Shown: piece by piece, positions 19,053 to 54,215 of the stretch
Layout: every line of letters begins with the position of its first letter
Position numbering within the stretch: position 1 is the first letter of the stretch
Program-made: the position numbers and the translations under genes
Notes under the pieces: generated by a model
Told to the model about the DNA's origin: nothing
What the model saw: the letters and a program-made list of their open reading frames with translations, nothing else
The model's database searches: none
Source of the DNA: Bacteroidota bacterium
GTDB taxonomy: Bacteria; Bacteroidota; Bacteroidia; 2-12-FULL-35-15
Direction of reading: 5' to 3'
Length of the DNA stretch: 64,000 nucleotides
Assembly (NCBI GenBank): GCA_037131555.1
Contig: JBAXQU010000003.1
Coordinates: 8,201-72,200 of the forward strand

Positions 19053-19065
19053 TATATATGTATAG
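19053..19065 (-). repeat. Weaker copy of the AT-alternating box (reverse complement CTATACATATATA)
   Basis: Matches 11 of 13 positions of ATACATATATATA. It lies 58 nt from array A and points away from it. Confidence 0.35.
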
Positions 19066-19123
19066 TTTTCTTTTTGTAAATTATTATCTAACGCTCTCAT
19101 CTATCTATCCATTTTCTAGTATG

Positions 19124-19438
19124 GGTAGTCATTCTCATGGAAATGGCAGCCATTCCCTTGAAGATGGCAGTCATTCTCATGGAAATGGTAGCCATTCTCT
19201 TGAAAAGGGTAGTCATTCCCTTGAAGATAGTAGCCATTCTCTTGAAGATGGTAGCCATTCCCATGAAGATGGTAGCCATTCTCTTGAAGATGGTAGCCAT
19301 TCCCATGAAGATGGTAGTCATTCTCTTGAAGATGGTAGCCATTCCCATGAAGATGGTAGCCATTCCCTTGAAAAGGGTAGCCATTCCCTTGGAAAGGGTA
19401 GTCATTCCCTTGGAAATGGTAGACATATCCACTTAACT
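19124..19438. repeat. Tandem array A: 14 full copies plus 1 degenerate copy of a 21-bp unit (consensus GGTAGCCATTCYCWTGAAGAT)
   Basis: I counted the units one by one, and the phase stays exactly 21 bp from 19124 to 19438. Variation is limited to a few positions. Three overlapping track ORFs (two plus-strand frames, one minus-strand frame) run through the array. Confidence 0.95.
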
Positions 19439-19718
19439 CCCTTTCACTCTCTTCATTTTCACATTGGCATACACCGACATAGCTATCAAATACAAGCAGT
19501 TAAATTGTATACACCCAATCCATACTTTCATTCAAAGAACCATTGCAGAGGCAAAAGTAATTGATTGGTAATGTTGACACAAAATTCGGAACAAAAGCCA
19601 AAATAGAATATGATATATAAGGTTTTTGAAAATAATTTGATTCTTCGATTTTTGAGAAAAAAAGAAAACCTAAACCAGAACCACCCCATTTGGATATTTT
19701 CTTGCCAATCGTAAAACC

Positions 19719-19761
19719 ATACATATATATAAGGTGTGTTTGGGGGGGATTTAAAAAGGTG
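19719..19761 (+). repeat. Conserved box ATACATATATATA-AGGTGTG-N-GGATTTAAAA-GGTG
   Basis: The exact 13-mer ATACATATATATA is shared with 31352-31371 (minus) and 41661-41680 (minus). The GGATTTAAAA..GGTG extension is shared with 31328-31344 (minus). Confidence 0.6.
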
Positions 19762-19932
19762 CGTTAATCTGTAAACAAAAGTGCGTTAATTATTTGGGTA
19801 AATGATATTGAATATTTTAGTAAATTTGTAAGTGCATATATTTATATGTTATGCGTCATTGTGAGAAACGTGCTAACGAAACATTAACGTAATGAAAGGA
19901 ACTTATAGAAACAATTAAAAAACAGAAAGATT

Positions 19933-20442
19933 ATGAAGACAAGAAAAATTATTTTGACTATTTCAATTGCATTATCATTTCATTTATCATCTAATGCACA
20001 AGGTAAAAGAAACGAGCTACCTTTTGATACTGTAAAAAACAAAGTGGCTTGGGTTGGAGAAATTGCAATTAACGGAGGAATATCAAAAAAGGAAGCAATG
20101 ATAAATATAGTTCAATGGGCGTATAAAAATTCATTTAAAATTGAAACGGAAAATGATGAAGCTGGTATTCTTGTATTAGTTGCTTCTATTATGTATGGTA
20201 ATCACAAGGTTGTTGAAAGCAGTGAAAAATTACGCAAAGCACCATTTAAAATATTTTTCGTTTTTAGTGATAAGTCTATCTCTTATAGAATTACAGATAT
20301 GTCTGTAAGTAAGTACCCAATAGAAATTAGATATGAATATTATAAGAAACGTCCTGCAATGGGTTATCATTATGCCTTTATAGACATTAATAAAAGAATT
20401 AATGAACTTATCGTTGATTTTACCAAAGTTAATAACAAGTAA
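19933..20442 (+). CDS. Secreted hypothetical protein, possibly DUF4468-like
   Basis: Signal peptide (MKTRKIILTISIALSFHLSSNAQ). Size and pattern (V.W.GEI...ISKKEA...W) resemble the DUF4468 family. This is a weak call. Confidence 0.4.
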   Translation: MKTRKIILTISIALSFHLSSNAQGKRNELPFDTVKNKVAWVGEIAINGGISKKEAMINIVQWAYKNSFKIETENDEAGILVLVASIMYGNHKVVESSEKLRKAPFKIFFVFSDKSISYRITDMSVSKYPIEIRYEYYKKRPAMGYHYAFIDINKRINELIVDFTKVNNK

Positions 20443-20491
20443 TATTATGACAAATAAACCATATGTAAACGTATTTAACTAATTACAATTA

Positions 20492-21316
20492 ATGAAAAAA
20501 TCAGATTCTATATTAAAAATTCTAACAGAAGTTGAAAGCCTATACAAGATTTTAACATTCCCTGAAAATGACATTAGGCGTGATTTTCACGGGATGGTAT
20601 TAAGTGCACTTCAAAGTTTTTATTGTGGATATATTGCTTCCGAATTGTCTCAAAAAATAGCAGACGGTAAAGTTGCTTTCGATGATGAATTGATAGAAAA
20701 TAAAACTCATATTGATAAGCTTTTAAAAACATATGAAAAATCTGACGGAACAATCTACTCCATAAACAGACACCTAATTCTTACGTGTTGGACTTCCTTT
20801 GAAGTGTCCTTAACAACATTAAGTGAGGCTCTTTTGCCTGATACTGAAAAGGAAAGTTTAAGTTTAAACGAATATGTTACAGCTTGTAAAATTCTAAAAG
20901 GTGAAAAAATAAAAGATGAAACTTTGCAGAAATTAAAAGACACTTTTTCCAAAAAGCATCTTACACATATAGAAGTCTGGAGAAAATTTAATGCTTTGGT
21001 TAAGAATGCTGAAAAGGCAGGAAAGACATATAGTCGGGTAAGACAAGACGACATTCTATTTCTTCAAATGTACGGAACTATGAGAAACTCTTTGATGCAT
21101 TCTAATGGAATTTATTTTGGAAGGTATATTAAATATCTATTCAATGATTATGAAATTGAATTTCAAAACGGAAAGACTTTTGGATATAAACCAGCAGAGG
21201 AATTACCTAAATTTTATACTGACCTAATGTATCACTTATCTAACATATATTTAGCTTTGACTGACCTATATTATGAAATAGATTTCATTAGTTATCCAGA
21301 CACCGAAACAATATAA
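20492..21316 (+). CDS. Hypothetical protein with a C-terminal HEPN-like Rx4H motif (candidate RNase or abortive-infection-type protein)
   Basis: 274 aa, predicted cytoplasmic and alpha-helical. GTMRNSLMHSNG fits the RNxxxH HEPN signature. No adjacent partner gene. Confidence 0.4.
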   Translation: MKKSDSILKILTEVESLYKILTFPENDIRRDFHGMVLSALQSFYCGYIASELSQKIADGKVAFDDELIENKTHIDKLLKTYEKSDGTIYSINRHLILTCWTSFEVSLTTLSEALLPDTEKESLSLNEYVTACKILKGEKIKDETLQKLKDTFSKKHLTHIEVWRKFNALVKNAEKAGKTYSRVRQDDILFLQMYGTMRNSLMHSNGIYFGRYIKYLFNDYEIEFQNGKTFGYKPAEELPKFYTDLMYHLSNIYLALTDLYYEIDFISYPDTETI

Positions 21317-21348
21317 ACGTGAAAAGAACTAACCCGAAAAAAACAACG

Positions 21349-21371
21349 AACGGCTAACATAAGTAGCCGTT
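21349..21371 (+). terminator. Hairpin downstream of the HEPN-like ORF (weak terminator candidate)
   Basis: aacggcta-acataag-tagccgtt forms an 8-bp stem. The T-run (ctcttttt) starts only about 10 nt later. Confidence 0.3.
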
Positions 21372-21434
21372 GCACAACCCTCTTTTTAATACAAAAATAA
21401 AGCAGAAACCCAAAAAATCGACTTCAATAGATGC

Positions 21435-21463
21435 GTTTTAAGAGAGGATGGGATTTTGGGGAT
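21435..21463 (+). repeat. Right copy of the imperfect direct repeat (GTTTTAAGAGAGGATGGGATTTTGGGGAT)
   Basis: See 18925-18951. Confidence 0.6.
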
Positions 21464-21484
21464 GGAATGTGCTCTGCAAAATTG

Positions 21485-21551
21485 CCATCGCCCCCGCTGG
21501 CGCAGGCGTGTTTCGCCTGTGCCGCATAGTAGGTGGTGTCCTCACCACCAC
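21485..21551 (+). other. GC-rich twin-hairpin element of unknown function (possible small structured RNA or REP-like element)
   Basis: 45 of 67 nt are G or C by my count, in an AT-rich context. Hairpin 1 pairs 21499-21508 with 21514-21523 (10 bp); its single G-U pair is valid only in a plus-strand transcript. Hairpin 2 pairs 21532-21538 with 21543-21549 (7 bp, perfect). Confidence 0.3.
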
Positions 21552-21654
21552 ATCTAGCACTTAAAAAAAAGCAAGCCAAAAGAGCAGAAGTACATGAGTA
21601 GTAAAAAGCGAAAAATGTAGCTTCCCGCTATGCTTACAGAGATTTGGAAGAAGG

Positions 21655-22542
21655 CTAATAGTGTGCAATCAGTTGCTCCAGTTTTTTTCTAGTTTCAGCG
21701 TTAATAGGCATCAATGGCAAGCGTACGTATGCTTTGCAAAGGTCAAGGATTTCGAGAGCAGCTTTTATTCCTCCCGGATTTCCATCAGCAAATAATTGTT
21801 CGGTAATGTCGGTAAGTTTATAATGCAGTGTTCGCGCTTTAGGCAAGTTGCCTGCCAATGTTTGCCTTACCATTTCCGAAAAGTCTTTCGGAAAAGCATT
21901 CGCCACCACCGATATTACACCCTCGGCACCACAAGCTATCATAGGCAATGTAAGTGAGTCATCGCCCGAGATCACCTTAAAGGATGAAGGTTTGTTTTTA
22001 ATAATTTTCATGGCCTGTTCCAAATTTCCAGAAGCCTCCTTTATACCAATAATGTTCTTGAACTCTCGCGCAAGCCTCAAGGTGGTCTCAGCACTTATGT
22101 TCGAACCCGTTCTCCCTGGCACGTTGTATAAAATGATGGGCAACCGCGATACCTTTGCCAAGGCCTTGTAATGTTGGTAAATCCCCTCTTGGTTTGGTTT
22201 GTTGTAATACGGAGAAACCGATAATAGTGCGTCAATCCCTTTGAAATCGGAAGGATGATTCATCGCATTGATAATTTCTTGCGTATTGTTTCCACCCAGT
22301 CCCATCACTATAGGCACACGTTTATTCACCGTTTGAACAACCAGCGAAACCACAAGTTGTTTTTCTTCTTTCGTAAGCGTCACCGATTCGCCTGTTGTTC
22401 CAAGCACTACAATGTACTCAGCACCACCTTCGATGATGTGATTAACAATTCTCACAATCGATTTTTTGTCAATCGATTTATCTTTCTTGAAAGGCGTTAC
22501 AAGCGCTACACCTGTTCCTGTAAATTTCGAATTCGTATGCAT
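21655..22542 (-). CDS. dapA: 4-hydroxy-tetrahydrodipicolinate synthase
   Basis: 295 aa with GVALVTPF, GTTGES, and the YNVPGRTG context typical of DapA. Confidence 0.95.
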   Translation of the reverse strand: MHTNSKFTGTGVALVTPFKKDKSIDKKSIVRIVNHIIEGGAEYIVVLGTTGESVTLTKEEKQLVVSLVVQTVNKRVPIVMGLGGNNTQEIINAMNHPSDFKGIDALLSVSPYYNKPNQEGIYQHYKALAKVSRLPIILYNVPGRTGSNISAETTLRLAREFKNIIGIKEASGNLEQAMKIIKNKPSSFKVISGDDSLTLPMIACGAEGVISVVANAFPKDFSEMVRQTLAGNLPKARTLHYKLTDITEQLFADGNPGGIKAALEILDLCKAYVRLPLMPINAETRKKLEQLIAHY

Positions 22543-22605
22543 ATTATGAAAATTAAGGAAACAAAGGTAAGGTGGAATTTAAGATTCTCGACATGAATTC
22601 TTTTT

Positions 22606-22613
22606 TACCTTTG
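22606..22613 (+). promoter_or_regulatory. Candidate -7 box (TACCTTTG) only 4 nt upstream of the ispE ATG
   Basis: Exact TAnnTTTG match. The spacing implies a leaderless or near-leaderless mRNA. Confidence 0.35.
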
Positions 22614-22617
22614 CCTC

Positions 22618-23442
22618 ATGCTCACATTTCCAAACGCAAAAATAAATTTAGGACTCAACATCATCCGTAAACGACCAGATGGTTATCATGATTTGCAGTC
22701 GGTGTTTTATCCAATTGGGCTTCGCGATGCGCTTGAAGTGATTGAAAACACAAGTAAAACAACAGAACGAATACAATTTACAACTTCGGGAATAGCGATA
22801 CCCGGAGAAATAAAATACAACCTTTGTTGGTTTGCCTATCATTTAATCGCCAATGATTATAAGCTACCTAATGTTAAAGTTCATCTTCATAAACAAATCC
22901 CAATAGGAGCAGGGCTTGGTGGAGGTTCGGCCGATGCAGCCTTTTTTATTCGATTACTCAATGATACATTTGAGCTTGGTTTGTCGTGGGGAGAAATGCA
23001 TCATTATGCCCGTCAACTGGGTAGCGATTGTTCCTTTTTTATTACCAATCGCCCTGCTTATGCACAAGCCAAAGGTGATGAATACGAAACCATCCATTTG
23101 GATTTGTCCAACTATTTCATCGCATTAGTTTATCCTCCCATTCATATCAATACAGCAAAAGCGTATAGCGGAGTGGTGCCAATGATGCCTACTCATCCAT
23201 TAGAACACGACATTGTCAATTTGCCAATAACCAAATGGAAGGATAGAATTAATAATGATTTCGAGAAATCGATATTTCCGCAATTTCAAACCATCAAAAC
23301 AATTAAGGATAAATTGTACCGACTCGGTGCTGTGTATGCATCAATGAGTGGAAGCGGTTCATCGGTGTATGGAATATTCAAATCCGAAACGAATTTGAAA
23401 TCAGAATTCAAAAACTATTTTCTGTGGGAAGGTAAGCTCTGA
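22618..23442 (+). CDS. ispE: 4-(cytidine 5'-diphospho)-2-C-methyl-D-erythritol kinase
   Basis: N-terminus AKINLGLNIIRKRPDGYHDL, the GHMP kinase motif PIGAGLGGGSADAA, and MSGSGSS. Confidence 0.95.
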   Translation: MLTFPNAKINLGLNIIRKRPDGYHDLQSVFYPIGLRDALEVIENTSKTTERIQFTTSGIAIPGEIKYNLCWFAYHLIANDYKLPNVKVHLHKQIPIGAGLGGGSADAAFFIRLLNDTFELGLSWGEMHHYARQLGSDCSFFITNRPAYAQAKGDEYETIHLDLSNYFIALVYPPIHINTAKAYSGVVPMMPTHPLEHDIVNLPITKWKDRINNDFEKSIFPQFQTIKTIKDKLYRLGAVYASMSGSGSSVYGIFKSETNLKSEFKNYFLWEGKL

Positions 23443-23460
23443 TAAAGACGTTGGCCGAAA

Positions 23461-25089: not shown

Positions 25090-25124
25090 CCGTATTGATA
25101 TAGGTTTTTGCCTTGTGGCAATGT

Positions 25125-26405: not shown

Positions 26406-26449
26406 TAATTTTATTGGTTATTTAATTTGTTGGATAACAAATTATCCAT

Positions 26450-26797: not shown

Positions 26798-26799
26798 AA

Positions 26800-27288: not shown

Positions 27289-27562
27289 TCTTCATAAATT
27301 GATGGATAAAGGTAATAATTATTTTGCTTTCGATATGAGTAAAATTTAATATTCGCTTTTTATTGCACATTTCCCATTCGATACTTTGATAATGGCTTGA
27401 AAATTATTGACGGAATAAGAATATTTATGTAAGACGAATGAAAATAAAAACTATTTTTGCTAAACGAAACTTCAAGTGGAAACAGAAGTTAAAAAATAGC
27501 TACTCTCCAAGTAAAGTAAGTTATCAAACGTCTATCTGTAGCCATTTTTAAATATTACAACT

Positions 27563-30293: not shown

Positions 30294-30294
30294 A

Positions 30295-31053: not shown

Positions 31054-31327
31054 TTGAGTTTAATAAAACAACAAGCGCAAAACTAATTAAATTTGTTTAC
31101 AAGGTCTCAATTCTGTTTTAGCTCAAGTATTTATTTATTTTGAAAAATGATTTTTCCTGAAATTGGAGTTTTCATTCACAAGAAGCTGATGTAAAATTTC
31201 CTAAAAAACCTTGTTTTTAACCGGAGTTCTTACTTTGTGGTTCGGTTACATTCGGGGTTCCTTGCAGGTGCAGCCAAATTTCTTCCAAGCCAATTTTTAA
31301 ACCCCTTCCTTTCCAACCCCAAATATA

Positions 31328-31371
31328 CACCAAATTTTAAATCCTCAGCCTACACATATATATATGTATAC
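31328..31371 (-). repeat. Conserved box (reverse complement GTATACATATATATATGTGTAGGCTGAGGATTTAAAATTTGGTG)
   Basis: Contains the exact 13-mer ATACATATATATA and the GGATTTAAAA..GGTG extension shared with 19719-19761. It lies 132 nt from array B and points away from it. Confidence 0.6.
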
Positions 31372-31503: not shown

Positions 31504-31692
31504 TTGCCGCAAGCAAAATTGCAGTTGCCGCAAGCAAAATTGCAATTGCCGCAACCAAAATTGCAGTTGCCGTAACCAAAATTGCAGTTGCCGCAAGCAA
31601 AATTGCAAATGCCGCAAGCAAAATTGCAATTGCCTTAACCAAAATTGCAGTTGCCGTAAGCAAAATTGCATTTGCCGTAAGCAAAATTGCAA
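31504..31692. repeat. Tandem array B: 9 copies of a 21-bp unit (consensus TTGCCGCAAGCAAAATTGCAR)
   Basis: Units counted individually, with exact 21-bp phase. Several unit junctions form GCAATTGC palindromes, and a TTGC-C-GCAA dyad lies within the unit. A partial inverted copy sits at 31448-31466. Several frames on both strands are open. Confidence 0.95.
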
Positions 31693-35300: not shown

Positions 35301-38300
35301 CCAAGCGTTACCAACAATGACAAATGCTTCCACAGCAACTATCTGTAGTGGAAACTCATTGAACATATCACTCACTTCATCAATTCCTTCGACTTATACT
35401 TGGATTACTTCAAACAATGCGAACACCACAGGTGAGAGCACCACCCTGCAAACATCCAGTGTAATCAATAATACCATAGTGAATACTGTAAATACTCCAC
35501 AAACATTAACCTATACCGTAACACCAATTTCAACATCAGGTAGCTGTATTGGTAGTACACAATCAGTAGTAATAACAGTAAACCCACAACCTACGGTTAC
35601 AAGTCCTTCCTCAACAACTATTTGTAGTGGAAGTTCAATAAATATCTCGTTAACAAGTAATATGAACTCCACATTTACTTGGTTGGCAAATGATAATGCT
35701 AACACTACAGGAGAGTCCACTACATCACAATCAACCAGCACAATTTCAGATGTGATTACAAATACGACCACTGTTCCACAAACACTAACTTATACCGTTA
35801 CACCCACATCAACTGTTTTTGGCAATTGCTTAGGTTCGAATCAAACCGTTTCAGTAATTGTTAATCCAACAACTACAGCAAGTGCTGGAGGTAATGCTAG
35901 TATCTGTTCATCAGGGACTTTCACTTTGTCAGGAACAATAGGAGGGGGAGCAACTTCAGCACAATGGACAACGAGTGGTACTGGTACATTTAATAATACA
36001 TCTTTATTGAATGCAACTTATACTCCATCGCCTGCAGATATTGCAGCTGGTTCGGTAACACTTACCATCACCACAGATAATCCAGTTGGCCCCTGTGATT
36101 TAGTTTCTGATTTTATGGTCTTAACCATTAATCCTGCAGCAACGGTTTCTGCAAATAGCGATGCAACTATTTGTGCAGGTAGTACTTATACATTAGCGGG
36201 TTCATTCGGATTACCCGCAGCATCCATCACTTGGTCGACTAGTGGAAGCGGTACTTTTAGTAATCCTTCTGATGCAAATGCTATTTATACTCCTTCTGCA
36301 ACAGATATAGCAGCAGGCAATGTTCTACTTACCATCACCACTAATAATCCTTCTGGACCTTGTCCTGCGGTGAACGATGCAATGATACTAACCATTAGCC
36401 CAGCTGCTATTGCGAACGCTGGCCAAGATGCTTCCATTTGCCAAGGCGATAGTTATACATTATCTGGTTCGATAGGAGGTAGTGCCAGTTCATTGAATTG
36501 GACAACTTCAGGAAGTGGCACTTTTAACAACCCGAATTCGGCAACAGCAACCTATACTCCTTCGGCTAGTGATATTGCCGCTGGGTCTGTAACGTTAACC
36601 ATGAGTACTAATAATCCTGTTGGTATTTGTTCGGCAGCTACAGATAACATGACCATTACATTTGCTCCAAACGACAATGCTAGTTTTGCGTATTCGGCTT
36701 CCACATTTTGTCACAATGGTGCCGATGTTAGTCCAACAATAACTGGGCTTACAGGTGGAGTGTTCTCGTATGCACCGAATGGATTATCTTTAAACGCAAG
36801 TTCAGGTACTATTAATTTATCGGGAAGTAACTTAGGTACCTACCAAGTATATTATACTACAGTTGGCCCATGTCCTCATACCGATTCAATGCAGATTACT
36901 ATTACAAATTCACCTGCATCAACATTCAATTTTACACCTTCTGCTTACTGCCAATTTGCTAGTTCGAATCCTTTACCAACATTTACCAATGGTGGTACAG
37001 CAGGAGTGTTTACTTCCTCTCCAGCAGGTTTGGTTTTTGTGAGTGCTATCACTGGTGAAATTGATTTAACCGCTAGTAGCCCTGCAACTTATACCATTAC
37101 CAATACAATAGCAGCTGGAAATGGATGTAATCAATCCATCTCAACGAGTACAGTTACCATCCGAGCATCAGCTATTGCAACAGCTGGAACTGATGCTTCA
37201 ATCTGTTCAGGTAATGCTTACACTTTATTTGGTGTTGTTTCAGGAGGAGCTACTTCATTGCTTTGGACAACTAATGGTACTGGAAGTTTCAATAATCCAA
37301 CAATTCCGAACGCAACGTATACACCTTCCGCAAGTGATGTAGCATCCGGTTTTGTTACAATTACGTTGAATGCTAATGAGCCTTCAGGTCAATGTCCTGG
37401 AAACGATGCATTGATATTGACGATTAATCCAGCAGCAGTAATAAATGCAAATACTGATGCGGTTATTTGTGCTGGTAACAACTATACTCTCTCAGGTTCA
37501 TTTGGAGGAGGAGCTAGTTCTGCTACATGGTCAAGCAGCGGCACAGGTAGCTTCGATAACACATCCATCAACAATGCTACATACACCCCTTCTCTTGCCG
37601 ATATTTCAGCAGGAAGTATTACTTTAACTTACACTACTAACAATCCATTAGGAAGTTGCAATGAAGCGGCAGATGCAATGGTGTTAACAATTACTCCAGC
37701 GGCTACTGCAAATGCTAATATTGATGATGTGATTTGTGCAGGAAGTACCTATACACTTTCTGGTTCTGTAGCTGGTTCAGCTACATCAGGTTCTTGGAGT
37801 AGTAGTGGAACCGGAACGTTTAATAATCCTTCGCTATTGAATGCTACCTATACACCTTCTGTTGCCGATATTGCTGCTGGTGGTGTAACATTAACATTAA
37901 GTTCTAATGACCCAACTGGGCCTTGTACCTCAGCATTTGATAATATGTTTTTAAGCATTACTCCTAATGCTACCGCTAGTGCTGGCAATGATGCTATTAT
38001 CTGTGGCAATGCTACGTTTTCGCTTTCTGGATCATATAGTGGTGGAGCAACTGCTATAACCTGGACCACCACTGGGTCAGGCAGTTTTAATAGTACCACT
38101 ACTCCTAATGCAATTTACACACCATCAGCAAGCGACATTGCTACGGGAAGTGTTCATTTGATCATCACAACAAATGATCCTCCGGGAATTTGTATGCCTG
38201 TTGCTGATACAATGTTGTTAACCATTTCGCAACCACAAGATGCATCCTTCACTTATCCTGCATCTACTTTTTGTATTTCGGGTACTAATCCTGTTCCATT

Positions 38301-41300
38301 CATTACAGGAGTAACTGGTGGAACTTTCTTTTCTACTCCTTCTGGATTATCAATGAATTCAAGTACAGGTGTTGTAAATCTTAGTTCGAGTGCAACAGGC
38401 ACCTATGTGATTACCTACGCAACAACAGGACCTTGTCCGAACACTAGCACACAAACAATAACATTGAGTGCAGCGCCTTCGGCCACATTTAATTACACTC
38501 CTGCTACCTATTGTCAAAATTCGAGTGTGAATGCATTCCCTACTTTCCCATTGGGGTCTAGTGCAGGCACTTTTAGCGCTACACCTATAGGTATTTCATT
38601 TGTAAGCACTGGGACAGGGGTGGTAGATTTAACAAGTAGTTCGCCAGGAATTTATACCATAACCAATACGATACCTGCATCAGGCGGATGTAGTGTATCT
38701 TCAGCAACAAGTACAATAACGATTGGCGCACAAGCTCTAGTGACCGCAGGTGCTGACGGAACTATATGTGCTGGCTCTTCATTTACCCTATCTGGCGCAA
38801 TTGGAGGAAGCGCAACGGTTTCCAATTGGGTTACATCAGGTTCAGGAACATTCAATAATAATTCCGTACCAACTGCTACCTACACTCCTTCAGCTGCCGA
38901 TATTGCAACTGGAAGTGTTACTTTAACAATCACTACTGATGATCCTGCTGGTGCTTGTCCTTCGGCAACTGATGCGATGCAAATTTTAATTTCTCCACTT
39001 GCCACAGTTGATGCGGGTAGCGATGCCTCCATCTGTGCTGGATTGCCCTACACTTTAACAGGTTCCTTTGGTGGAAGTGCCAATTCCTCAACTTGGAGTA
39101 CTAGCGGAACAGGAACATTTAATAATAGTGCATTGTTAAATGCTAATTATACTCCTTCTCCCGCTGATATTGCTTCTGGCAGTGTAGCATTAACATTGAC
39201 TACAAACGATCCAATCGGTCCTTGTTCTCAAGTAAACGATTTCATGGTACTTTCCATTAGCACCCCTGCAAGTGCTTTTGCAGGTGCAGATACAACTATT
39301 TGTTCTGGAACATCAATAAATCTTTCTGGGAATATAGGTGGTTCCGCATCATCCTTAACTTGGACGACTAGTGGTAGTGGTACATTTGGTAATTCAAGTA
39401 TTGCAAACACAAGTTATACTCCTTCTGCTGCCGATGCTGCATCAGGAAGTGTTACACTTACCATAACTACAAACGACCCAATAGGTGCTTGCAATCTAGC
39501 TACTGACAACATTGTTCTAAACATCAATCAATTCAATGATGCTTCGTTTGCTTATCCGAGTTCTACCTTTTGTGTTTCTGGAGCAAACCCAACACCTACT
39601 ATTAATGGGCCTACGGCTGGAGTGTTTACTTTCACACCATCAGGACTTTCTATCAACTCGTCAACAGGAACAATTAATCTTGCTTCGAGTTCAGTAGGCA
39701 CTTATTTAATCACCAATCATACAGCTGGACCATGTTCCGACTCAGCAACTGCATCAATAACCATTACCAATTCTTTCAATGCCAATTTTAACTACACATC
39801 TGGATTGTATTGTCAAAACGGAAGTCCTAATCCTACACCTAGTTATCTTGGAACAGGTAGTGGAGGTGTCTTTACTTTTGCCCCTGCTGGTTTAGTTATC
39901 AATTCGGTGAGCGGAGAGGTTGATTTAATAACATCTTCTCCTGGAACCTACGTTGTTACTAACACCATTGCTGCTTCTGGTGGTTGTACTTCTGCAATTG
40001 ATACAGGTATCATCACCATTACTCCTCATGATGATGCAAGTTTTGCTTATACAGGAACTTCGTTCTGTAAATCTGGAACCAATCCAATCCCTACCATCAC
40101 AGGTTTAGCTGGAGGAACTTTTAGTGTAAGTCCTGCAAACCTCTCAATAAATGCAAGTACAGGAGAGGTGTATTTAAGCGCAAGTAATTTCGGTAGTTAT
40201 AACATCACTTACACTACAGCAGGCAATTGTCCATTCTCCTCCACAGTTCCATTCACCATCACTGCTCCTCCTGATGCTTCCTTTATGTATGCAAGTGGTG
40301 GTGTGTTTTGTATTAACGCATTCCCAAATCCGACACCAATTATTCCAGGTGTTGGTGGCATATTTTCAGCCACACCTTCTGGTTTAGTCATCAATGTTGC
40401 AACAGGTCAAATCGATCTGGCCGCTAGTACTGTTGGTTCATACATGGTTACCGATTCGATTCCTGCGGGTGGAGGATGCTCAGCAGCTGTTACTACCAAT
40501 TCTGTTACTATCAATGCGCTTGATAATGCAAGCTTTAGTTATGCTCAAGCAAATTATTGTCAAGGAGGAACTAATCCGCTTCCAACCATCACAGGTGTAT
40601 CTGGTGGAACATTCAGTGTCGTGCCTTCTGGAATGACCATTGATGCAAATACAGGAAGTATAAATTTAGCCGCCACCATTGTGAGTGCTTATACCATAAT
40701 TTATACTACCAATGGCGCTTGTACCAATTCATCATCAGAGGTAGTGAATGTAATGCTTCCTCCTGTTGCCAGCGCAGGAGCCACAGCAAACATTAATTGT
40801 ACTGGACTTGCCACACTTACTGGCAATGGCTCATCACCAGCCACCTATAGTTGGGCTCCTTCAAGTTCAATAGTTTCAGGAAGTAATACACTTACTCCTG
40901 TTGTCAATAGTGCCGGTACTTACACCTTAACATTGGTAGATGGAACAACAGGATGTATTGCCACCGATTCGGTTGCTGTTACAAATACCTCTCAAGTGGT
41001 AGCATCGTTTACTACCAATCCCGATCCTGCAGTTGGTAGTGTTCCTTTAGTTGTTGGATTTACAAACACAAGTATCAATGCTACCAACTATACTTGGACA
41101 TTCTGCATTGGTTGCCCTCAATCTAATGCTGGTGATACAAGTTTTGTTTTCACCACATCAGGCACCTACACTGTTTATTTAGTAGCCAGTAATGGACTTT
41201 GTATCGACACCGTTTCAATGAAAGTGATTGTAAACGATGCGTATTCGGTTATTACACCAAACGTATTTAGTCCGAATGACGATGGTGTGAACGATCTTTT

Positions 41301-41517: not shown

Positions 41518-41562
41518 TTCTTCTCAAACGATTATTTTAATCGATCTCGTACATTGCCATAA

Positions 41563-41596
41563 ACGCGAGCGAGTTTCGTTCGTGTTTCTTATTCTG
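41563..41596 (+). terminator. Candidate terminator after the giant adhesin gene
   Basis: acgcgagcga-gtt-tcgttcgtgt forms a 10-bp stem (two G-U pairs), followed by ttcttattct. Confidence 0.4.
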
Positions 41597-41660
41597 GGGT
41601 GACTAGCCACAACTCATCCATTTTCTGTAAGAAAGATACAACCCTTTCGCTTCGCCTTGA

Positions 41661-41680
41661 AACACCTATATATATGTATC
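41661..41680 (-). repeat. Conserved box (reverse complement GATACATATATATAGGTGTT)
   Basis: Exact 13-mer ATACATATATATA followed by GGTGT. It lies 210 nt from array C and points away from it. Confidence 0.6.
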
Positions 41681-41890: not shown

Positions 41891-42142
41891 GTCAATATAA
41901 ATAATCATATCGAGTGAAAGTGCGTCCTTTTGGTCAATATAAATAATCATATCGAGTGAAAGTGCGTCCTTTTGGTCAATCTGAATAATCATATCGAGTG
42001 AAAGCGCGCACTTTTGGTCAATCTGAATAATCATATCGAGTGAAAGTGCGTCCTTTTGGTCAATATGAATAATCATATCGAGTGAAAGTGCGCACTTTTG
42101 GTCAATATGAATAATTAAATCGAGTGAAAGTGCGTCCTTTCA
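41891..42142. repeat. Tandem array C: 6 copies of a 42-bp unit (GTCAATMTRAATAATCATATC + GAGTGAAAGYGCGYMCTTTTG)
   Basis: Units start at 41891, 41933, 41975, 42017, 42059 and 42101. Units 3 and 5 contain the 14-bp perfect palindrome AAAGTGCGCACTTT. Degenerate GAAAG..CACTTT half-units extend left to about 41825. Confidence 0.95.
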
Positions 42143-44977: not shown

Positions 44978-45005
44978 GTTCAAATAAAATAATTAATTAC
45001 TAATG

Positions 45006-46046: not shown

Positions 46047-46114
46047 GATAAATAATTTTAAGGTTTATAAAAAGGAAAGGAGTACAAGACTCCCTTCCAT
46101 TATGATATTTATTA

Positions 46115-46822: not shown

Positions 46823-46968
46823 GATTTTTTTGTTTAAGTAAGTAATTAATAAAATAATGTTATTTAGTCGGTACAAATATACAACAACTTTAAATACAAA
46901 AAGTAAGAGAAAGAGGGTATTTTATCTACGTGCTAGTACGTAGATGCAGAGTTGCTGATTTGGAGTTA

Positions 46969-47616
46969 TTAATCAATTAGCTTGTTTTCGATGCAGTATT
47001 TGATAAGTCCAACAATCGTTTTTGTTCCAGTTTTTCTAAAAATATTTTTTCGGTGAGACTCAACAGTGCGTTCGCTTATGAAAAGAATTTCGCCAATTTT
47101 TGCATTGTTGTGTTCATTAGCAATGAGTTTTATTATTTCTTTCTCTCGTTCAGTAAGATTAATTTTAGCTTCAACCTCTTTGCTCGTATTTCTTTCGCTA
47201 ATCGCTTTCATCATCTCTACCGAAACTTCTTCGCTAAAAAACATTCCTCCGTTAGACACTTTTTCAATAGCATTAATAAGTTCTTTTTTACCGGTGTTTT
47301 TTAAAATATAACCTGAAACGCCTGCATCAAGCATTTCCGAAATCATTGATTTTTCACCAAACATTGAAAGTGCAATGACTTTGATTTTTGAATTCTTTGC
47401 TAGCAATTTTCTTGTAAATTCAATTCCGTTCATTTCGGGCATATTGATGTCAGTGAGAACAATGTCTGGAGGGCTAATTTGTATTAGCTCAATCGCTTTC
47501 AGAGCAGATGTTGCTTCTCCCAACACTTCAATTCCTTTTTCACTCTTAACTAGAGCCTTTATGCCATCAATCAGCATTTGGTGATCGTCTAATATAAAAA
47601 GTGTTGTTTTGCTCAT
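46969..47616 (-). CDS. NarL/LuxR-family response regulator
   Basis: REC domain (ILDDHQ...DINMPEMNG...K) plus a LuxR HTH (LTEREKEIIKLIANEHNNAKIGEILFISERTVESHRKNIFRKTG). The preferred start is the ATG at 47616. Confidence 0.9.
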   Translation of the reverse strand: MSKTTLFILDDHQMLIDGIKALVKSEKGIEVLGEATSALKAIELIQISPPDIVLTDINMPEMNGIEFTRKLLAKNSKIKVIALSMFGEKSMISEMLDAGVSGYILKNTGKKELINAIEKVSNGGMFFSEEVSVEMMKAISERNTSKEVEAKINLTEREKEIIKLIANEHNNAKIGEILFISERTVESHRKNIFRKTGTKTIVGLIKYCIENKLID

Positions 47617-47634
47617 TGCTGTAAATCTACGCAA

Positions 47635-49644: not shown

Positions 49645-50830
49645 AATTCATCACTCCTATAAAGTAAGCATTAGCGACTTGCATTATTCTTACATTTTTA
49701 GTCTTGTCTGTTTCCTTATTTAGTAAAACACACTCCTCAAAATTGTCTTGATATAACGTTTCTCCATATACCAAGGGAGAATGCACATATCGAGTTAATT
49801 GTAAATTTCTACAAAAAACTCCGTTCTCGGATGTTGGCAAACAGCCTTCCTTTAAATATTTTGCATCATTAATGCTAGCCGTTTTTACTGATAGTGAGGT
49901 TTCAAAACTGCGTATAACCTGAGAACTAAGTTGAATAGAATTTTCTAAATCATCACTCACTAATAAATGAAAAAACGAAAATCTTTTTTCTGAAGTAAGC
50001 AAATCGGATTTCATAAATGCACCACCAACAAAGGCCATATTAAAATCCTTTTTAGTTGGTTTTGTCCATCCTGTGTTTGTTTCATCAACATTATAGTGAA
50101 TGATTATTGTGAAGTCAGGATGAAATTGATTGATGATTTCAGCTCTTTTTTGAAGTTCTATTTCTTTAAACACTAATTTAAATTTATCTCTTTTGGTAGC
50201 TTTGGTGAGCAGCCAATTTCGTTTCTCCTCATTTATTTTCGAAATCTTGCATAAGCTATCCACAGCATTTTTAAATGAACTTCTGAGCCAATCATCGAAA
50301 CTCACCCCAAATGATGTGGCTCCATTGAATTTTCGAGTTAATAGTACTTCTGCACCTTTCGCCTCTAACTTTTTCTTCAACAATACAGAAGTGGCATACG
50401 TTAATTCGCCTTCGGCCAATTCAATTGAATCAACTTTGCCATTGTTATAAGGTAGTTTAAATCGAATGAACTTTTGTTCTATTCGTCCCGAAGCTAAATT
50501 ACCAGCCGTATGGCCCGCATCAATTGCAATTTTGTATCCTAGTAAACTGTTTATTGTATCCATATTTAATCGATTAGGGTGTCTCAATCGCTCAATGGAA
50601 TCCCAGCTACTATAATATTCAGGCTTATTATTTATTTTGTCTTTCGGGTTTGCATAAACACCAATTCCTCTTTCATCTATTGTATAATAAGTAGAAAGTG
50701 CCTTTTGAAAATCAAGATATTTTTCTGCCTTGTCAACGTAATATTTTATTTTGCTTGGCGTTGAAACGTTTTGCCCAAAGCAAGTACTGAGGATGGAAAT
50801 AAATATTACTATATTAAAAAGGTATTTCAT
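49610..50830 (-). CDS. N-acetylmuramoyl-L-alanine amidase-like (Amidase_3-like) protein
   Basis: IAIDAGHTAG, EVLLTRKF and IIIHYN resemble Amidase_3 motifs. The preferred start is the ATG at 50830 (MKYLFNIVIFISILSTCFGQ); the track start at 50863 is a TTG codon. Confidence 0.5.
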   Translation of the reverse strand: MKYLFNIVIFISILSTCFGQNVSTPSKIKYYVDKAEKYLDFQKALSTYYTIDERGIGVYANPKDKINNKPEYYSSWDSIERLRHPNRLNMDTINSLLGYKIAIDAGHTAGNLASGRIEQKFIRFKLPYNNGKVDSIELAEGELTYATSVLLKKKLEAKGAEVLLTRKFNGATSFGVSFDDWLRSSFKNAVDSLCKISKINEEKRNWLLTKATKRDKFKLVFKEIELQKRAEIINQFHPDFTIIIHYNVDETNTGWTKPTKKDFNMAFVGGAFMKSDLLTSEKRFSFFHLLVSDDLENSIQLSSQVIRSFETSLSVKTASINDAKYLKEGCLPTSENGVFCRNLQLTRYVHSPLVYGETLYQDNFEECVLLNKETDKTKNVRIMQVANAYFIGVMNYVFKKSTTNDK

Positions 50831-50910
50831 GATTGATGAACATGCTCTGTTTTGAATATTCAAATATACTAATTATTATTTGTTAATGATAAAAGACTAA
50901 TTTTGTGATT

Positions 50911-51312
50911 ATGAAAGTAAAATTACCTGAATTAGATTCGGAGTTCAGTTTCAAAATGAGTAGAAGTGGTGGAGCTGGAGGGCAAAACGTGAACAAAGTT
51001 TCAACAAAAGTGGAACTCAACTTCGATGTGAAAGCTTCCTTAATTCTTAACGACAATCAAAAAGAACTTGTATTTTTAAAGTTGGCAAAAAAAATTAATA
51101 AGAATGGTGTACTTCAACTAGTTTCCCAAGAAGAAAGAACTCAGTTGAGAAACAAAGAAATTGTCATTAAGAGGTTCTATGAATTATTGCGTAAGTGTTT
51201 TGTTGAACCAAAGAAACGAAAACCAACCAAGCCAACGAAAGCTGCTAAAGAGAAACGCTTAGAAACAAAGAAGAAGACTGCTAAAATTAAGAAATTAAGA
51301 AAATCGTTGTAA
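50911..51312 (+). CDS. arfB: Alternative ribosome-rescue factor / peptidyl-tRNA hydrolase ArfB
   Basis: GGQ motif (SGGAGGQNVNKVSTKVEL) and a basic C-terminal tail. Confidence 0.85.
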   Translation: MKVKLPELDSEFSFKMSRSGGAGGQNVNKVSTKVELNFDVKASLILNDNQKELVFLKLAKKINKNGVLQLVSQEERTQLRNKEIVIKRFYELLRKCFVEPKKRKPTKPTKAAKEKRLETKKKTAKIKKLRKSL

Positions 51313-51314
51313 AA

Positions 51315-52004
51315 CTATCCGACTATTTGCTTTTCAAATTCTAACCACAATCGTTCTTTGGGTGCGGGAGCAATGATTACAATTTTTTCTTGTTTAACGG
51401 GGTGAATAAATTCTATTTTGCGTGCATGGAGGTGAATAGAGGCGTCCTTATTGCTTCTATCAAATCCATATTTTAAATCTCCTTTTATTGGACAACCCAT
51501 TGCTGAAAGCTGAACCCGAATTTGATGATGACGACCAGTGAGTGGCTTTATCTCTAACAAAAAATAATTATCCGAATTACCTATCAACTCATAATCTAAT
51601 TCGGAGCGCAATGCTCCTGGCGTTTCTTTAGCAAAAGCTTTCGACATGTTTTTTGCTTCATTCTTTTTTAAATAATGAACCAGCTTTCCGCTAGTTGCTG
51701 CAGGTTTGTTTTTTACAACTGCCCAATATGTTTTCTGAATATCCTTAGTTTGAAACATTGCGTTCAAACGCGATAAGGCTTTACTTGTTTTTGCAAACAA
51801 TACAATTCCACTTACAGGTCTATCAATACGGTGTATGGTACCAACAAAAACTTGACCGGGTTTGTTGTATTTTTTTTTTAAGTATTTCTTTACAAAATCG
51901 CTTAATGGGGTATCACCGGTTTTGTCGCCCTGAACAATATCTGAAGACTTTTTGTTAACCGCAATAATGTGATTATCTTCATAAAGTACTTCAATTTCGT
52001 TCAC
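51315..52004 (-). CDS. RluA family pseudouridine synthase
   Basis: HRIDRPVSG catalytic motif and GRHHQIRVQL. Confidence 0.85.
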   Translation of the reverse strand: MNEIEVLYEDNHIIAVNKKSSDIVQGDKTGDTPLSDFVKKYLKKKYNKPGQVFVGTIHRIDRPVSGIVLFAKTSKALSRLNAMFQTKDIQKTYWAVVKNKPAATSGKLVHYLKKNEAKNMSKAFAKETPGALRSELDYELIGNSDNYFLLEIKPLTGRHHQIRVQLSAMGCPIKGDLKYGFDRSNKDASIHLHARKIEFIHPVKQEKIVIIAPAPKERLWLEFEKQIVG

Positions 52005-52057
52005 GGAATTATCTTATTAATGGTGTAATAAATAGTGTATCAGTAGATATTATCAAC

Positions 52058-52876
52058 CTAATATTGTTCGCTTGAATTAGGAAAGTCACTCGATTTAACA
52101 TCCTTAATATAGTTGCCTACGGCACCTTTAATTTCGTCATATAGATTGAGGTAACGTCTTAAAAAGCGAGGATGAAATTCGTTATTCAAACCAACCATAT
52201 CATGAAAAACGAGTACTTGTCCATCGACACCACCCCCAGCGCCTATACCGATAACAGGAATTTCGATTTCTTTGGCAACTCGTTCGGCAAGTTTCGCTGG
52301 AATTTTTTCAAGAACGATTGCAAAACAGCCTGTGTTTTCGAGAAGTTTGGCATCATCAATCAATCGCTTTGCTTCTTCTTCTTCTATGGCTCGTACGTTA
52401 TAGGTGCCGAATTTGTAGATGCTTTGAGGGGTTAATCCGAGGTGACCCATAACCGGTATACCTGCTGTGAGTATACGTTCTATCGACTCTTTCACTTCTC
52501 TTCCACCTTCTAATTTCACGGCATGCGCACCACTTTCTTTCATTATTTTTATAGAAGAATACAATGCTTCCTTGGAATTGCCCTGATACGAACCAAACGG
52601 TAAATCTACCACAATCAATGCACGATTTACAGCACGAACTACTGACGAAGCATGGTAAATCATTTGGTCGAGAGTGATAGGCAAGGTGGTTTCGTGGCCG
52701 GCCATCACATTCGATGCAGAGTCGCCAACCAAAATGACATCTATACCTGCATCGTCAACAATTTTGGCCATGGTATAATCATACGCAGTGAGCATCGATA
52801 TTTTTTGCCCTCCACGTTTCATCTCTTGAAGCACATTTGTGGTTACTTTCTTTATTTCCTTTTTGCTTACCGACAT
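52058..52876 (-). CDS. panB: 3-methyl-2-oxobutanoate hydroxymethyltransferase
   Basis: MLTAYDY, LVGDS, KLEGG and GHLGLTPQ. Confidence 0.95.
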
Positions 52877-52976
52877 AGTATTTGATTGCTAATTCGTTTG
52901 TTTTTCGACTCTACACTCGCATTTATTTTACACAAAACTACAAATAGTTTTTGTATACAGATTAGTTATTTAGCCT

Positions 52977-52984
52977 TACTTTCG
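52977..52984 (+). promoter_or_regulatory. Near-consensus -7 box (TACTTTCG) 4 nt upstream of the ATG
   Basis: Same sequence and same 4-nt spacing as at 42344-42351. Confidence 0.25.
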
Positions 52985-52988
52985 CATT

Positions 52989-53774
52989 ATGAAAAAAATA
53001 TTCATGCTTTTCGATTACATTCATTACCGTTTTAAGTCGAAAAACGAACATGGGGTACATTCTCCATTTGTATATGATTTGCTTACCACGGTGATTTATA
53101 ACAACACCGAGTATTATGCTTACAAGGAAGTTGAAGACTTGCGATTAGAATTAAGTCGTAGCAATGCAGTTTTGAACTGTGTTGATTTAGGTGCAGGTTC
53201 ATACCTTGGAAAAACAAATGTGAGAACAATAAAACAACTATTGCGTTATTCGGTGAAACCGCCAAAATATTCAAAATTGATGTTTCGCCTTGTCGACCGA
53301 TTTCAGCCCAAAGAACTTTTAGAATTGGGTACTTCCTTAGGCATCACCTCCGCTTATCTTTCGAAAGCCAATCCATCTTCTCATTTATTTACTATCGAAG
53401 GTTGTACGGAGATTGCGACCGTGGCGCGTGAAAACTTCGAAAAACTAAATCTTCAGAACATCACTCAGATGGAAGGGGAGTTCGACACTTGTTTGCCCGA
53501 GGTATTGAATAAAATCAAACAATTAGATTTTGTTTTTTTTGATGGCAACCATCGCAAGCAGGCAACTTTGAATTATTTCAATGCTTGTTTACCTAAAGCC
53601 CACGATTCGAGCGTTTTTGTTTTTGACGACATTTATTGGTCAACTGAAATGAAACAAGCTTGGACTGAAATAAAAACCAACCCCAAAGTGAGTGTCACCA
53701 TCGATTTGTTTTTTATGGGACTCGTCTTTTTTAGGAAAGACCAAACGAAAGAACATTTCGTTTTGAAATTTTAA
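52989..53774 (+). CDS. Class I SAM-dependent methyltransferase (O-methyltransferase family 3-like)
   Basis: LELGTSLGITSAYL SAM-binding loop and FFDGNHRK. Confidence 0.7.
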   Translation: MKKIFMLFDYIHYRFKSKNEHGVHSPFVYDLLTTVIYNNTEYYAYKEVEDLRLELSRSNAVLNCVDLGAGSYLGKTNVRTIKQLLRYSVKPPKYSKLMFRLVDRFQPKELLELGTSLGITSAYLSKANPSSHLFTIEGCTEIATVARENFEKLNLQNITQMEGEFDTCLPEVLNKIKQLDFVFFDGNHRKQATLNYFNACLPKAHDSSVFVFDDIYWSTEMKQAWTEIKTNPKVSVTIDLFFMGLVFFRKDQTKEHFVLKF

Positions 53775-53929
53775 GCTTCTAAATCAAAATTCATCCTTAT
53801 TCTAAATTTGAACTAAATTTCCAAAGTCAAGGCTTTTTCTTCTATACTATATAATAGTGTATTTTTATAAGTCAACATTAGCTTTCAACTCAGCTTTTCA
53901 TCCTTTTCGGTTCATGTTTTCTCAAAAAA

Positions 53930-54215
53930 GAGGGTCTGGATAGCCGTTATGCAGACCTGCATAGCTCCTTTGCAGAGGATGTTTTTCGCTTTGCGAAGGT
54001 TGCAAAGTCATTTTCAGGGTCTGCATACTGCTTATTCAGTAATGCAAAGCTCTTAACAGGGTCTGCATAGCTCTTATGCAGTACTGCAAAACAATTATGC
54101 AGTACTGCATAACTCTTAACAGGGTCTGGATAGCTCTTATGCAGTACTGCATAACGACTATCCAGTACTGCAAAACCCTTAACAGGGTCCTCATAAAGGC
54201 TATGCAGAGCCTCAA
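53930..54215. repeat. Tandem array D: about 13 degenerate 21-bp units forming 42-bp superunits (GCAGTACTGCAWAAC.CTTAA + CAGGGTCTGSATAGCTCTTAT)
   Basis: The 10-bp palindrome GCAGTACTGC occurs at 54078, 54099 and 54141, with variants at 54036 and 54162. Related GCAG.. starts at 53951, 53972 and 53993 are all on the same 21-bp register. A TGCATA-N5-TATGCA dyad lies in the alternate unit. Confidence 0.85.

Follow-up and report, generated by a model that had tools for sequence, protein, structure and literature searches.

Local minisatellites of unrelated sequence with a period quantised at 21 bp in intergenic DNA of a Bacteroidota lineage

The window analysed here, a 64,000-nucleotide stretch of a Bacteroidota bacterium contig (JBAXQU010000003.1, positions 8,201 to 72,200, numbered below from its first letter), carries four tandem repeat arrays (A to D). 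Together with nine further arrays in close relatives, these are local minisatellites: each has a unit sequence of its own, units are gained and lost whole, and the period is quantised at 21 bp in this clade. What links the arrays is best explained by a constraint on period across a freshwater Bacteroidota clade, not by common descent or a mobile element. The quantised period probably reflects helical phasing, and the account that fits best, to which a probability of about 0.4 is assigned, is that the arrays are phased binding sites displayed on one face of the helix to a protein that is only postulated.

Tandem Repeats Finder (TRF) called arrays with a score above 60 at only four places in the window:

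19124-19426, unstranded, array A: 21 bp x 14.4 copies, consensus GGTAGCCATTCCCTTGAAGAT (TRF)
31504-31692, unstranded, array B: 21 bp x 9 copies, TTGCCGCAAGCAAAATTGCAG, plus a higher-order repeat of 63 bp (TRF)
41891-42140, unstranded, array C: six units of 42 bp, GTCAATATGAATAATCATATCGAGTGAAAGTGCG[TC/CA]CTTTTG (TRF)
53928-54215 (TRF core 54031-54189), unstranded, array D: 21/63 bp, about seven copies, with decayed units leftward (TRF and repeat-family search, families D5 and D6)

Decayed units with 64–73% identity extend array A to about 19061-19480. Array B scores 285 at period 21 and 315 at period 63, and array D consists of 21-bp units arranged in a 63-bp higher-order repeat, each unit being a 16-bp palindrome (TATGCAG-TA-CTGCATA) followed by a 5-bp spacer. 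In autocorrelation, identity at lag 21 is 0.85 in A and 0.90 in B, identity at lag 63 is 0.92 in B and 0.88 in D, and array C gives 0.93 at lag 42 and 0.24 at lag 21. Lags of 7, 10, 11, 14, 20 and 22 remain at background in all four arrays (lag-7 identity 0.16–0.31), which are therefore not heptamer or 10–11-bp repeats in disguise. The strict 21/42-bp period proposed in a first-pass annotation of this DNA, made by a model from the letters alone, accordingly holds by both methods (A and B 21, C 42, D 21/63, with no 7- or 11-bp sub-period), as does the array length of 190–315 bp. The units are also mutually unrelated, as claimed: the best circular identity among them equals that expected of shuffled sequence, except between two D subunits.

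All four arrays lie in the longest intergenic regions of the window, the only ones of at least 600 nt (1244, 821, 838 and 604 nt). The annotation had counted five such regions; there is no fifth, since the left edge of the window cuts into a gene of at least 1115 aa. Genes flanking the arrays are ordinary chromosomal genes. Array A is neighboured by folP and a hypothetical gene, and array B occupies a divergent region between a polysaccharide deacetylase gene and an operon comprising a small gene and that of a type IX secretion system (T9SS) adhesin (3053 aa). Array C lies between the adhesin gene, past its terminator, and fadL, upstream of the latter, and array D in the spacer of convergent methyltransferase and secA genes. 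Two terminators bear on these positions:

41561-41587, plus strand, terminator-like hairpin 3′ of the giant adhesin gene, beyond which lie array C and the AT-rich box near it
54334-54368, minus strand, intrinsic terminator of secA, with a 15-bp stem and a T run

Given the position of the secA terminator, array D is not part of the transcription unit of secA. Host regions have no significant sequence in common apart from a short AT-rich box (considered below) and are not conserved in relatives at 83–84% (purA, rluA) and 88–92% (SecA) identity, and the same-species contigs that carry the window arrays are all identical in sequence.

The smallest k-mer size of MEGAHIT is 21, and an assembly artefact, in which the period would derive from the assembler k-mer, was considered and rejected. 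The window sequence is identical to a metagenome contig in ENA and to Logan contigs of run SRR7053525, one of which (L164) begins inside array B and ends 50 nt short of array C; with identical independent contigs, the arrays are not inventions of an assembler. Logan contigs L164 and L167 both contain arrays, the array locus of L171 and L172 is present in an NCBI assembly as well as an ENA scaffold, and the units are imperfect and have higher-order structure. Copy numbers of the arrays derive from short-read assemblies.

Close relatives found by a SecA search (identity 92, 92, 90, 89 and 88%) supplied about 124 kb of non-redundant loci, bringing the lineage total with the window to 188 kb. Nine non-coding arrays were found in these loci:

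L165a, period 42, in the convergent secA/rpoC spacer, between both terminators
L165b, period 21/63, ten units, in the rpoB-rpoC operon spacer
L166a, period 21/63, between two small minus-strand genes
L166b, period 21, 2.5 units (listed also as 3 x 21 bp), adjoining a LytTR regulator gene
L169a, period 41/83, in a divergent ApbE/secA region
L171a, period 21/42, orthologue of L166a
L173a, two adjacent arrays, both of period 21, upstream of secA between small minus-strand genes, beneath an array-derived open reading frame (ORF) call (147 aa)
L173b, period 21/63, between two minus-strand genes

Apart from these, the loci of the relatives contain only a heptamer array and a coding domain repeat of 216 bp; 21-bp repeats of two copies within genes were discounted, being near the TRF detection threshold and partly His-rich low-complexity coding sequence. 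All 13 non-coding arrays of the window and its relatives fall on multiples of 21 bp, one of them a base off (41/83), at a density of about one per 14 kb in the lineage loci sampled. No unit was found outside its own array in the 188 kb, with up to 4 mismatches in 21 allowed, and this confinement excludes high-copy families of the type of repetitive extragenic palindromes (REPs) or of MITEs, miniature transposable elements with inverted repeats. Shared periods and self-confined units bear out the suggestion that a common mechanism, and not one spreading family, lies behind the arrays.

Copy-number change by whole units is seen in L165 and L168, where the secA-rpoC spacers are ~96% identical and the single 83-nt indel lies inside the array and corresponds to two 42-bp units. 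The rpoB-rpoC spacer has undergone a large change within a core operon of these close relatives, with 372 nt in L165 (14526-14897), including a 219-bp array of ten units, and an unrelated 98 nt in L168 (17786-17883) containing a hairpin and no array. In the orthologous pair L166a/L171a (flanking proteins 77% and 87% identical), a GGTTT(T/A)AAACC core is present in all nine units of L166a and all eight of L171a, while the other ~10 nt of the unit have diverged and been homogenised separately.

A wider background consisted of 160 loci (2.25 Mb), mostly from Bacteroidota and centred on purA and rluA, with no conserved host regions. Non-coding arrays in a TRF census of these loci have a mode at 21–22 bp, and coding arrays are spread across multiples of 3. 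Five calls of period 21 were 3 x 7-bp heptamer repeats and one (L083) was a real small gene; with these set aside and after de-duplication, about four true 21-bp arrays, 9–10 arrays of 22 bp and one of 42 bp remained. A count independent of TRF agreed modestly, 21 of about 80 distinct non-coding direct-repeat events having lags of 21, 22, 42, 44, 63 or 66. Six of about 20 background arrays sit between convergent genes. The census of periods that the first-pass annotation had proposed, carried out on genome fragments only, therefore gives multiples of 21 in the lineage and a mode of 21–22 among background non-coding arrays. The literature searched contained no account of Bacteroidota arrays forming a 21/22-bp period class.

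Arrays of gut Bacteroidales cluster at 22 bp, with up to nine units:

L142:5422-5620 (also in L120, L144, L152 and L147), gut 22-bp array
L132:9762-9880, gut 22-bp array
L134:14722-14850, gut 22-bp array

One nine-unit gut array repeats the core GAAACT-N2-3-AGTTTC every 22 bp, with spacers of ~8 nt that vary freely. This array is confined to one species (5 of 67 loci) and is 99% identical, with equal copy number, in four metagenomes; the core itself is present at two different gut loci. The gut arrays have no Rfam match and no description was found in the literature. A parS-like reading of the GAAAC/GTTTC core was rejected, the half-sites being everted relative to parS. On another gut-metagenome contig (L098:6227-6301 and 13824-13887), two 22-bp arrays 7.6 kb apart have a related unit (CGGAA…CGTGGTCGGG), which is dispersed in its organism, unlike the units of the window lineage. 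Heptamer arrays (e.g. CAACTGG-AAACTGA-CAACTGA) are present at L025:9105-9166 and 9301-9367, L006:12289-12347, L026:115-166 and L171:8059-8118.

Dyad symmetry, attributed by the first-pass annotation to every unit, is strong only in array D among the window arrays. Compared with shuffled units, the array A dyad (ATGG-N3-CCAT, 4-bp arms) is at chance (p=0.46), as is that of array B (4–5-bp arms, p=0.08–0.4). The 14-bp palindrome of array C, AAAGTGCGCACTTT, exceeds chance (p=0.03) but is perfect in only 2 of 6 units, and array D has a perfect palindrome of 16–18 bp (p<=0.005). Across the 13 lineage arrays dyads are nevertheless enriched, six being individually significant (Fisher p=4e-7), and in diverged arrays the dyad columns are conserved at 0.89–0.95 vs 0.71–0.76 for the rest. 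Helical phasing is suggested by the period of 21 bp here, that of 22 bp in gut arrays (hence not always a multiple of 3) and the palindromic core kept in older arrays.

Of the explanations put forward in the annotation, helically phased binding sites fit best, given the two-turn period and the palindromic cores kept in diverged and orthologous arrays, with a binder that is so far a postulate. Further support comes from the adjacency of L166b (21 bp) to a LytTR regulator gene and from the ~21-bp geometry of hybrid two-component system (HTCS) operators as a precedent (PMC3878776). Each array arose in situ by tandem amplification of a different seed of ~21 bp (or 42 bp), and grows and shrinks by whole units or blocks of two to three units through slipped-strand mispairing or unequal exchange. 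Units would serve as sites, often short palindromes, at which the postulated protein binds on one helix face, and the only duplications retained would be those that keep successive sites in helical register (two, four or six turns). In a variant of this scheme, arrays would be seeded by slippage between sites present beforehand at a 21-bp spacing, as in operators of Bacteroides AraC-type HTCS. The window arrays are young and homogeneous, and may as yet have little or no function.

Several observations weigh against this reading. The window encodes no LytTR or AraC regulator that could serve as binder, and none lies nearby. A TetR gene adjoins L166a and has a different operator; TetR was rejected as the L166a binder, the core motif being absent from the tetR promoter, which has a palindrome of its own. 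Arrays occupy convergent, divergent, tandem and operon-internal spacers without preference, two of them lying beyond or between terminators, a distribution that would fit neutral DNA equally. Among the 13 arrays, window array A, L165a and L173a2 have no dyad, the array C palindrome is broken in 4 of 6 units, and in the window arrays dyad columns are conserved no better than other columns. Arrays are dispensable between the sister genomes L165 and L168. A relative at 85% SecA identity has no arrays in 23 kb, nor are there any in ~57 kb of rluA- and purA-based relatives, so that the dense pattern may belong to a narrow clade, or else arrays may be under-represented in fragmented assemblies. The census covers genome fragments, and the non-Bacteroidota control is small (~0.2 Mb, with no array of at least 2.5 copies at period 21–22; in the TRF-independent count, two events at lag 21 and none at lag 22).

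The lack of orientation preference, the dispensability, the lack of a nearby binder and the youth of the window arrays make a neutral origin a serious rival, only somewhat less probable than phased binding sites. The arrays would then be neutral or selfish minisatellites without cellular function, produced by a mutational ruler in replication, repair or recombination that favours duplications of ~21 nt, for example by slippage across small hairpins; palindromes would be kept because the amplifying mechanism needs them, and not a regulator. Consistent with such an origin, arrays show no gene-orientation preference and are found between convergent terminators and inside the rpoBC operon, sister genomes differ in array presence and copy number, edges are decayed and centres homogenised, core and spacer are equally conserved in the window arrays, and REPs are extragenic palindromes known to be reiterated in tandem (PMC3733652). 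However, a slippage mechanism with a 21-nt step is not known, and duplication driven by hairpins should spread periods over 19–25, not give a sharp 21 or 22 by clade. Three arrays are also without hairpin potential, and the core is kept across species while spacers diverge, which suggests a sequence-specific constraint. A broader proposal, to be held with more reserve still, is that in this freshwater clade and, in a 22-bp form, in other Bacteroidota an undescribed ‘ruler’, either a family of DNA-binding or DNA-organising proteins or a process of replication or repair, makes or keeps two-turn arrays from arbitrary, often palindromic seeds, giving unique arrays genome-wide at about one per 14 kb.

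The first-pass annotation had further attached to three arrays an exact AT-rich box with a GGTGT extension, oriented outward. The exact 13-mer ATACATATATATA is indeed present three times in the window, at 19719(+), 31357(-) and 41667(-), and box-like sequences near the arrays are as follows:

19716-19739, plus strand, AT box near array A, ACCATACATATATATAAGGTGTGT, containing the exact 13-mer, 293 nt right of the array
31350-31369, unstranded, AT box near array B, CTACACATATATATATGTAT, near-palindromic, 135 nt left of the array
41659-41679, unstranded, AT box near array C, GAAACACCTATATATATGTAT, 212 nt left of the array, past the adhesin terminator
19051-19063, minus strand, weaker AT box, ATACATATATAAA, 12/13 match, 61 nt left of array A
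53843-53862, unstranded, degenerate box-like palindrome, TATACTATATAATAGTGTAT, ~70 nt left of the decayed edge of array D, a weak fuzzy match that may be due to chance

The B and C copies agree at 17 of 18 positions (ACAC[A/C]TATATATATGTAT), and a sequence resembling the Bacteroidota -7 element, TATATTTG, lies at 31327 on the minus strand, 30 nt off the B box. The GGTGT extension is exact only in the C box (the A box has a 1-nt insertion, the B box TGTGT), and the orientation is ambiguous because the box is near-palindromic (ACACNTATATATATGTAT). Distances from box to array vary from 60 to 293 nt. Intergenic DNA makes up 9.3% of the window and the host regions 59% of this; the chance that three of three random intergenic boxes would fall within 300 nt of an array is P=0.07, or 0.03 for three different arrays, making the co-occurrence that the annotation had wished to see tested (arrays and 13-mer within 300 bp) marginal. 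Relatives have a box beside an array in one orthologous case (L166a/L171a), between the stop codon and the terminator, and their remaining arrays have none; they also contain one exact box that lies 7 kb away from the nearest array, with a gene starting 13 nt after it. No exact copy is present in 2.25 Mb of other Bacteroidota. For these reasons the box was rejected as part of an element: it is a separate lineage-specific near-palindromic motif, only marginally linked to the arrays, and is best dropped from the definition of the ‘family’. Slippage seeded at the box likewise finds no support, as the box stands 60–293 nt off, is missing at most arrays of relatives and occurs without arrays. Two known motifs, the NrdR-type box and the -7 promoter element of Bacteroidota, were considered as identities for the box and appear unlikely, lengths and spacings being mismatched and no nrd gene being near.

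That the arrays are genes for small heptad-repeat proteins, starting in A and B at the ATG within the AT box, was another of the explanations listed and appears very unlikely. The hypothetical repeat peptides are His-rich in A (GSHSLED), Cys-rich in B (CRKQNCS) and YAVLHKS/YADPVKS in D, and His- or Cys-rich repeats could plausibly bind metal. Nearly all periods in the clade are multiples of 3, and of 7 codons, and the ORFs of A and B begin at a box ATG (for the ORF spanning array A, within the weaker box at 19051-19063) and run past the arrays, that of B extending 68 codons upstream (P ~0.02–0.04 before correction for four frames). Gene callers annotated array ORFs, and one relative has a genuine small secreted gene of this kind (L083:12254-12565), a micro-protein candidate in which Lys-rich heptad repeats (…KQIKADKARTKADRKQKRADK…) come after an N-terminus resembling a signal peptide; with this caution, coding in A and B keeps a small probability. 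However, the array ORFs have no Pfam match. ORF A has no scoring relative, probably owing to the composition filter of the search, and an exhaustive search with ORF B matched only other translated 21-bp arrays (CRKTNLF, CNLREQR, CETQNID, CRVQGAG), with no conserved N-terminus. The sole open frame of array C stops exactly at both edges and the last unit contains a stop. About 4 of 6 frames are expected to be open for a 21-bp unit and the observed numbers match chance, and the frame extension in array A has P ~0.07 once decayed units are discounted. Coding does not explain the perfect 16-bp palindrome of D, L165a lies between convergent terminators, and the period of the related gut arrays is 22 bp. 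Many ‘proteins’ in public collections (P0005, P0009, P0010, P0013, P0015) are plainly translated 21-bp arrays of other organisms, so that miscalling of such arrays as genes is not confined to this lineage.

Somewhat less remote, though still improbable, is a role as RNA, in which the arrays would form tandem hairpins in 3′ or 5′ untranslated regions or small RNAs acting as terminators, mRNA stabilisers or protein sponges. D units, and C units on the minus strand, do fold strongly (z about -7), many arrays lie directly downstream of genes, L165b is inside a transcribed operon spacer, and REPs and bacterial interspersed mosaic elements (BIMEs) have such roles in enterobacteria (PMC3733652). Against the structured repeat RNAs suggested earlier, Rfam at gathering threshold gave no matches in the window and none on arrays in nine background loci, and A and B fold no better than shuffled sequence (z -1.5 to -2.6). 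Several palindromes have centres of 0–2 nt, which suit protein dimers better than RNA loops, and arm sequences are conserved without compensatory changes. Array D lies past the secA terminator and L165a between convergent terminators, and the sharpness of the 21- or 22-nt period is left unexplained by a function as RNA.

Least credible of the readings weighed here is that the arrays are minisatellites inside low-copy mobile elements, MITEs similar to BrickBuilt, with four families in the window and the AT box as terminal or leader sequence. Bacteroidota precedents with similar periods are BrickBuilt, whose 23-nt repeats form 19 copies in a genome, and PgRS/464, with repeats of 41 nt (PMC4596501). 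Inverted box copies lie on both sides of array A, 19051(-) and 19719(+), L098 has two arrays with a related 22-bp unit 7.6 kb apart, and the L165 rpoB-rpoC spacer is wholly unlike that of L168, as if replaced. Nevertheless, no unit recurs beyond its own array in the lineage, B and C have the box on one side and most arrays of relatives have none; array A alone has inverted boxes on both sides. Host regions have no other common sequence, and the L165/L168 difference lies inside the array and not at the ends of an element. Dispersal at ~20 copies per genome would be too sparse to show in 64 kb. Comparison of the window with 72,556 plasmids and 50,697 phages revealed no similarity.

Other repeat systems were considered and rejected. 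Iterons of a replication origin do not fit: no rep gene is adjacent, Pfam and NCBIfam give no match for the hypothetical neighbours, DnaA-box matches number 17 vs 21.6 expected with none in a host region, and four arrays in 64 kb (13 in 188 kb) do not make one set per replicon; the AT-rich box, a counterpart of the iteron unwinding element, lies near three arrays at variable distance. A plasmid partition centromere (parC/sopC) was discarded in the absence of par genes and of plasmid or phage similarity, and a CRISPR array because units are contiguous at 21 or 42 bp, without spacers, and there are no cas genes. REP/BIME at high copy number is excluded, no unit being dispersed in the 188 kb.

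Among known classes, the arrays conform to minisatellites, or variable number tandem repeats (VNTRs), in having head-to-tail units of 10–100 bp in non-coding DNA by TRF and autocorrelation, whole-unit gain and loss, decayed edges and higher-order repeats, the whole-unit copy variation being shown in an array of a relative (L165/L168), while the other assemblies that contain the window arrays are identical. VNTR periods within one genome are normally heterogeneous; here, by contrast, every array of the clade is at a multiple of 21 (one at 41/83) and the density, about one per 14 kb, is high. Plasmids R6K and pPS10 have 22-bp iterons, and F has the 43-bp repeats of sopC, each with a 16-bp palindrome. 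In mode of working the present arrays would come closest to iterons and centromeres, and to two-turn direct-repeat operators. They resemble iterons and centromeres in a period of two or four turns, in units that frequently contain a short palindrome, bound in those systems by a dimeric protein, and in an AT-rich element nearby, but differ in having no rep or par gene, housekeeping flanks, many arrays per 64 kb, no DnaA-box enrichment and no plasmid similarity. LytTR-type sites are 9-bp repeats with spacers of 12–13 bp.

The direct-repeat spacing of ~21–22 bp of AraC/HTCS or LytTR operators is found in the arrays. Their location at a promoter with a cognate regulator is not: array D lies between convergent genes, and only L166b adjoins a LytTR gene. 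Predicted operators of Bacteroides AraC-type HTCS comprise two 16-bp sites with a 5-bp spacer, ~21 bp from centre to centre, with a sequence that differs per regulator (Ravcheev 2013, PMC3878776). Spacing, regulator-specific sequence and phylum are alike, but these operators have two copies vs 6–14 here, a promoter location and non-palindromic sites, and no such regulator is near the window arrays. BrickBuilt and PgRS/464 of P. gingivalis, the nearest elements described from Bacteroidota, are MITEs with dispersed spacer-less repeats of 23 nt (~19 copies) and 41 nt, a leader, a tail and terminal inverted repeats (Klein 2015, PMC4596501); they too are intergenic in Bacteroidota with periods near two and four helical turns, whereas in the present 188 kb every unit stays at a single locus and there are no shared ends. 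REP/BIME are extragenic palindromes with tandem reiteration, often 3′ of genes or in operons (Di Nocera 2013, PMC3733652). They form one genome-wide family with GTAG or CGTC tags and REP-associated tyrosine transposases (RAYTs), while the units described here are all different and undispersed and three arrays are non-palindromic. Heptamer direct repeats of the TAACTGA type, intergenic in some Bacteroidetes and Cyanobacteria (MacGregor 2015, PMC4679880), may be reported by TRF as ‘period 21’ (3 x 7) and differ from the window arrays, which have no 7-bp sub-period.

Some further features of the window lie outside the arrays. A 28-nt inverted repeat directly after folP (18759-18786 and 18866-18893; GAGATTTCTCACTTCGTTCGAAATGACA and TGTCATATCGAACGAAGTGAGAAATCTC, 96% complementary, 79 nt between arms) resembles a MITE or hairpin element, and Logan contig L002 ends at its edge, at 18752, which would suit a sequence with further copies elsewhere in the genome. 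Exact direct repeats of 14 nt, GGGATTTTGGGGAT (18938-18951 and 21450-21463), with some flanking similarity, bracket a 2.5-kb segment containing array A and two hypothetical genes without family match; this is the island that the first-pass annotation had proposed around array A, and the evidence for it is thin (E=0.02 among intergenic DNA). A near-perfect 22-bp palindrome, ATCTACGTGCTAGTACGTAGAT (46924-46945), operator-like, sits in the 92-nt spacer between a LuxR-type response-regulator gene and a downstream DUF3575-like gene. The gene for the 3053-aa adhesin contains nine diverged coding repeats of ~267 bp (35948-39473), which encode PKD-like domains and recur at intervals of 267 bp or multiples thereof; they are domain repeats of the usual kind and have no relation to the 21-bp arrays.

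In practical terms, the arrays break short-read assemblies and yield spurious ‘heptad-repeat protein’ gene calls in public databases. Periods at multiples of 21 (one at 41/83) in every non-coding array of the clade, with unrelated sequences, imply an unnamed constraint, which lies either in the geometry of a protein or in the way mutations arise. Neutral arrays would reveal a duplication process with a bias in length. To our knowledge, Bacteroidota lack the classical nucleoid proteins of enterobacteria; if a general ‘ruler’ exists, the arrays could be platforms serving in nucleoid organisation, as roadblocks at gene ends or in titration of regulators, and if they are phased binding platforms they would mark a level of chromosome organisation or regulation that is new for Bacteroidota.

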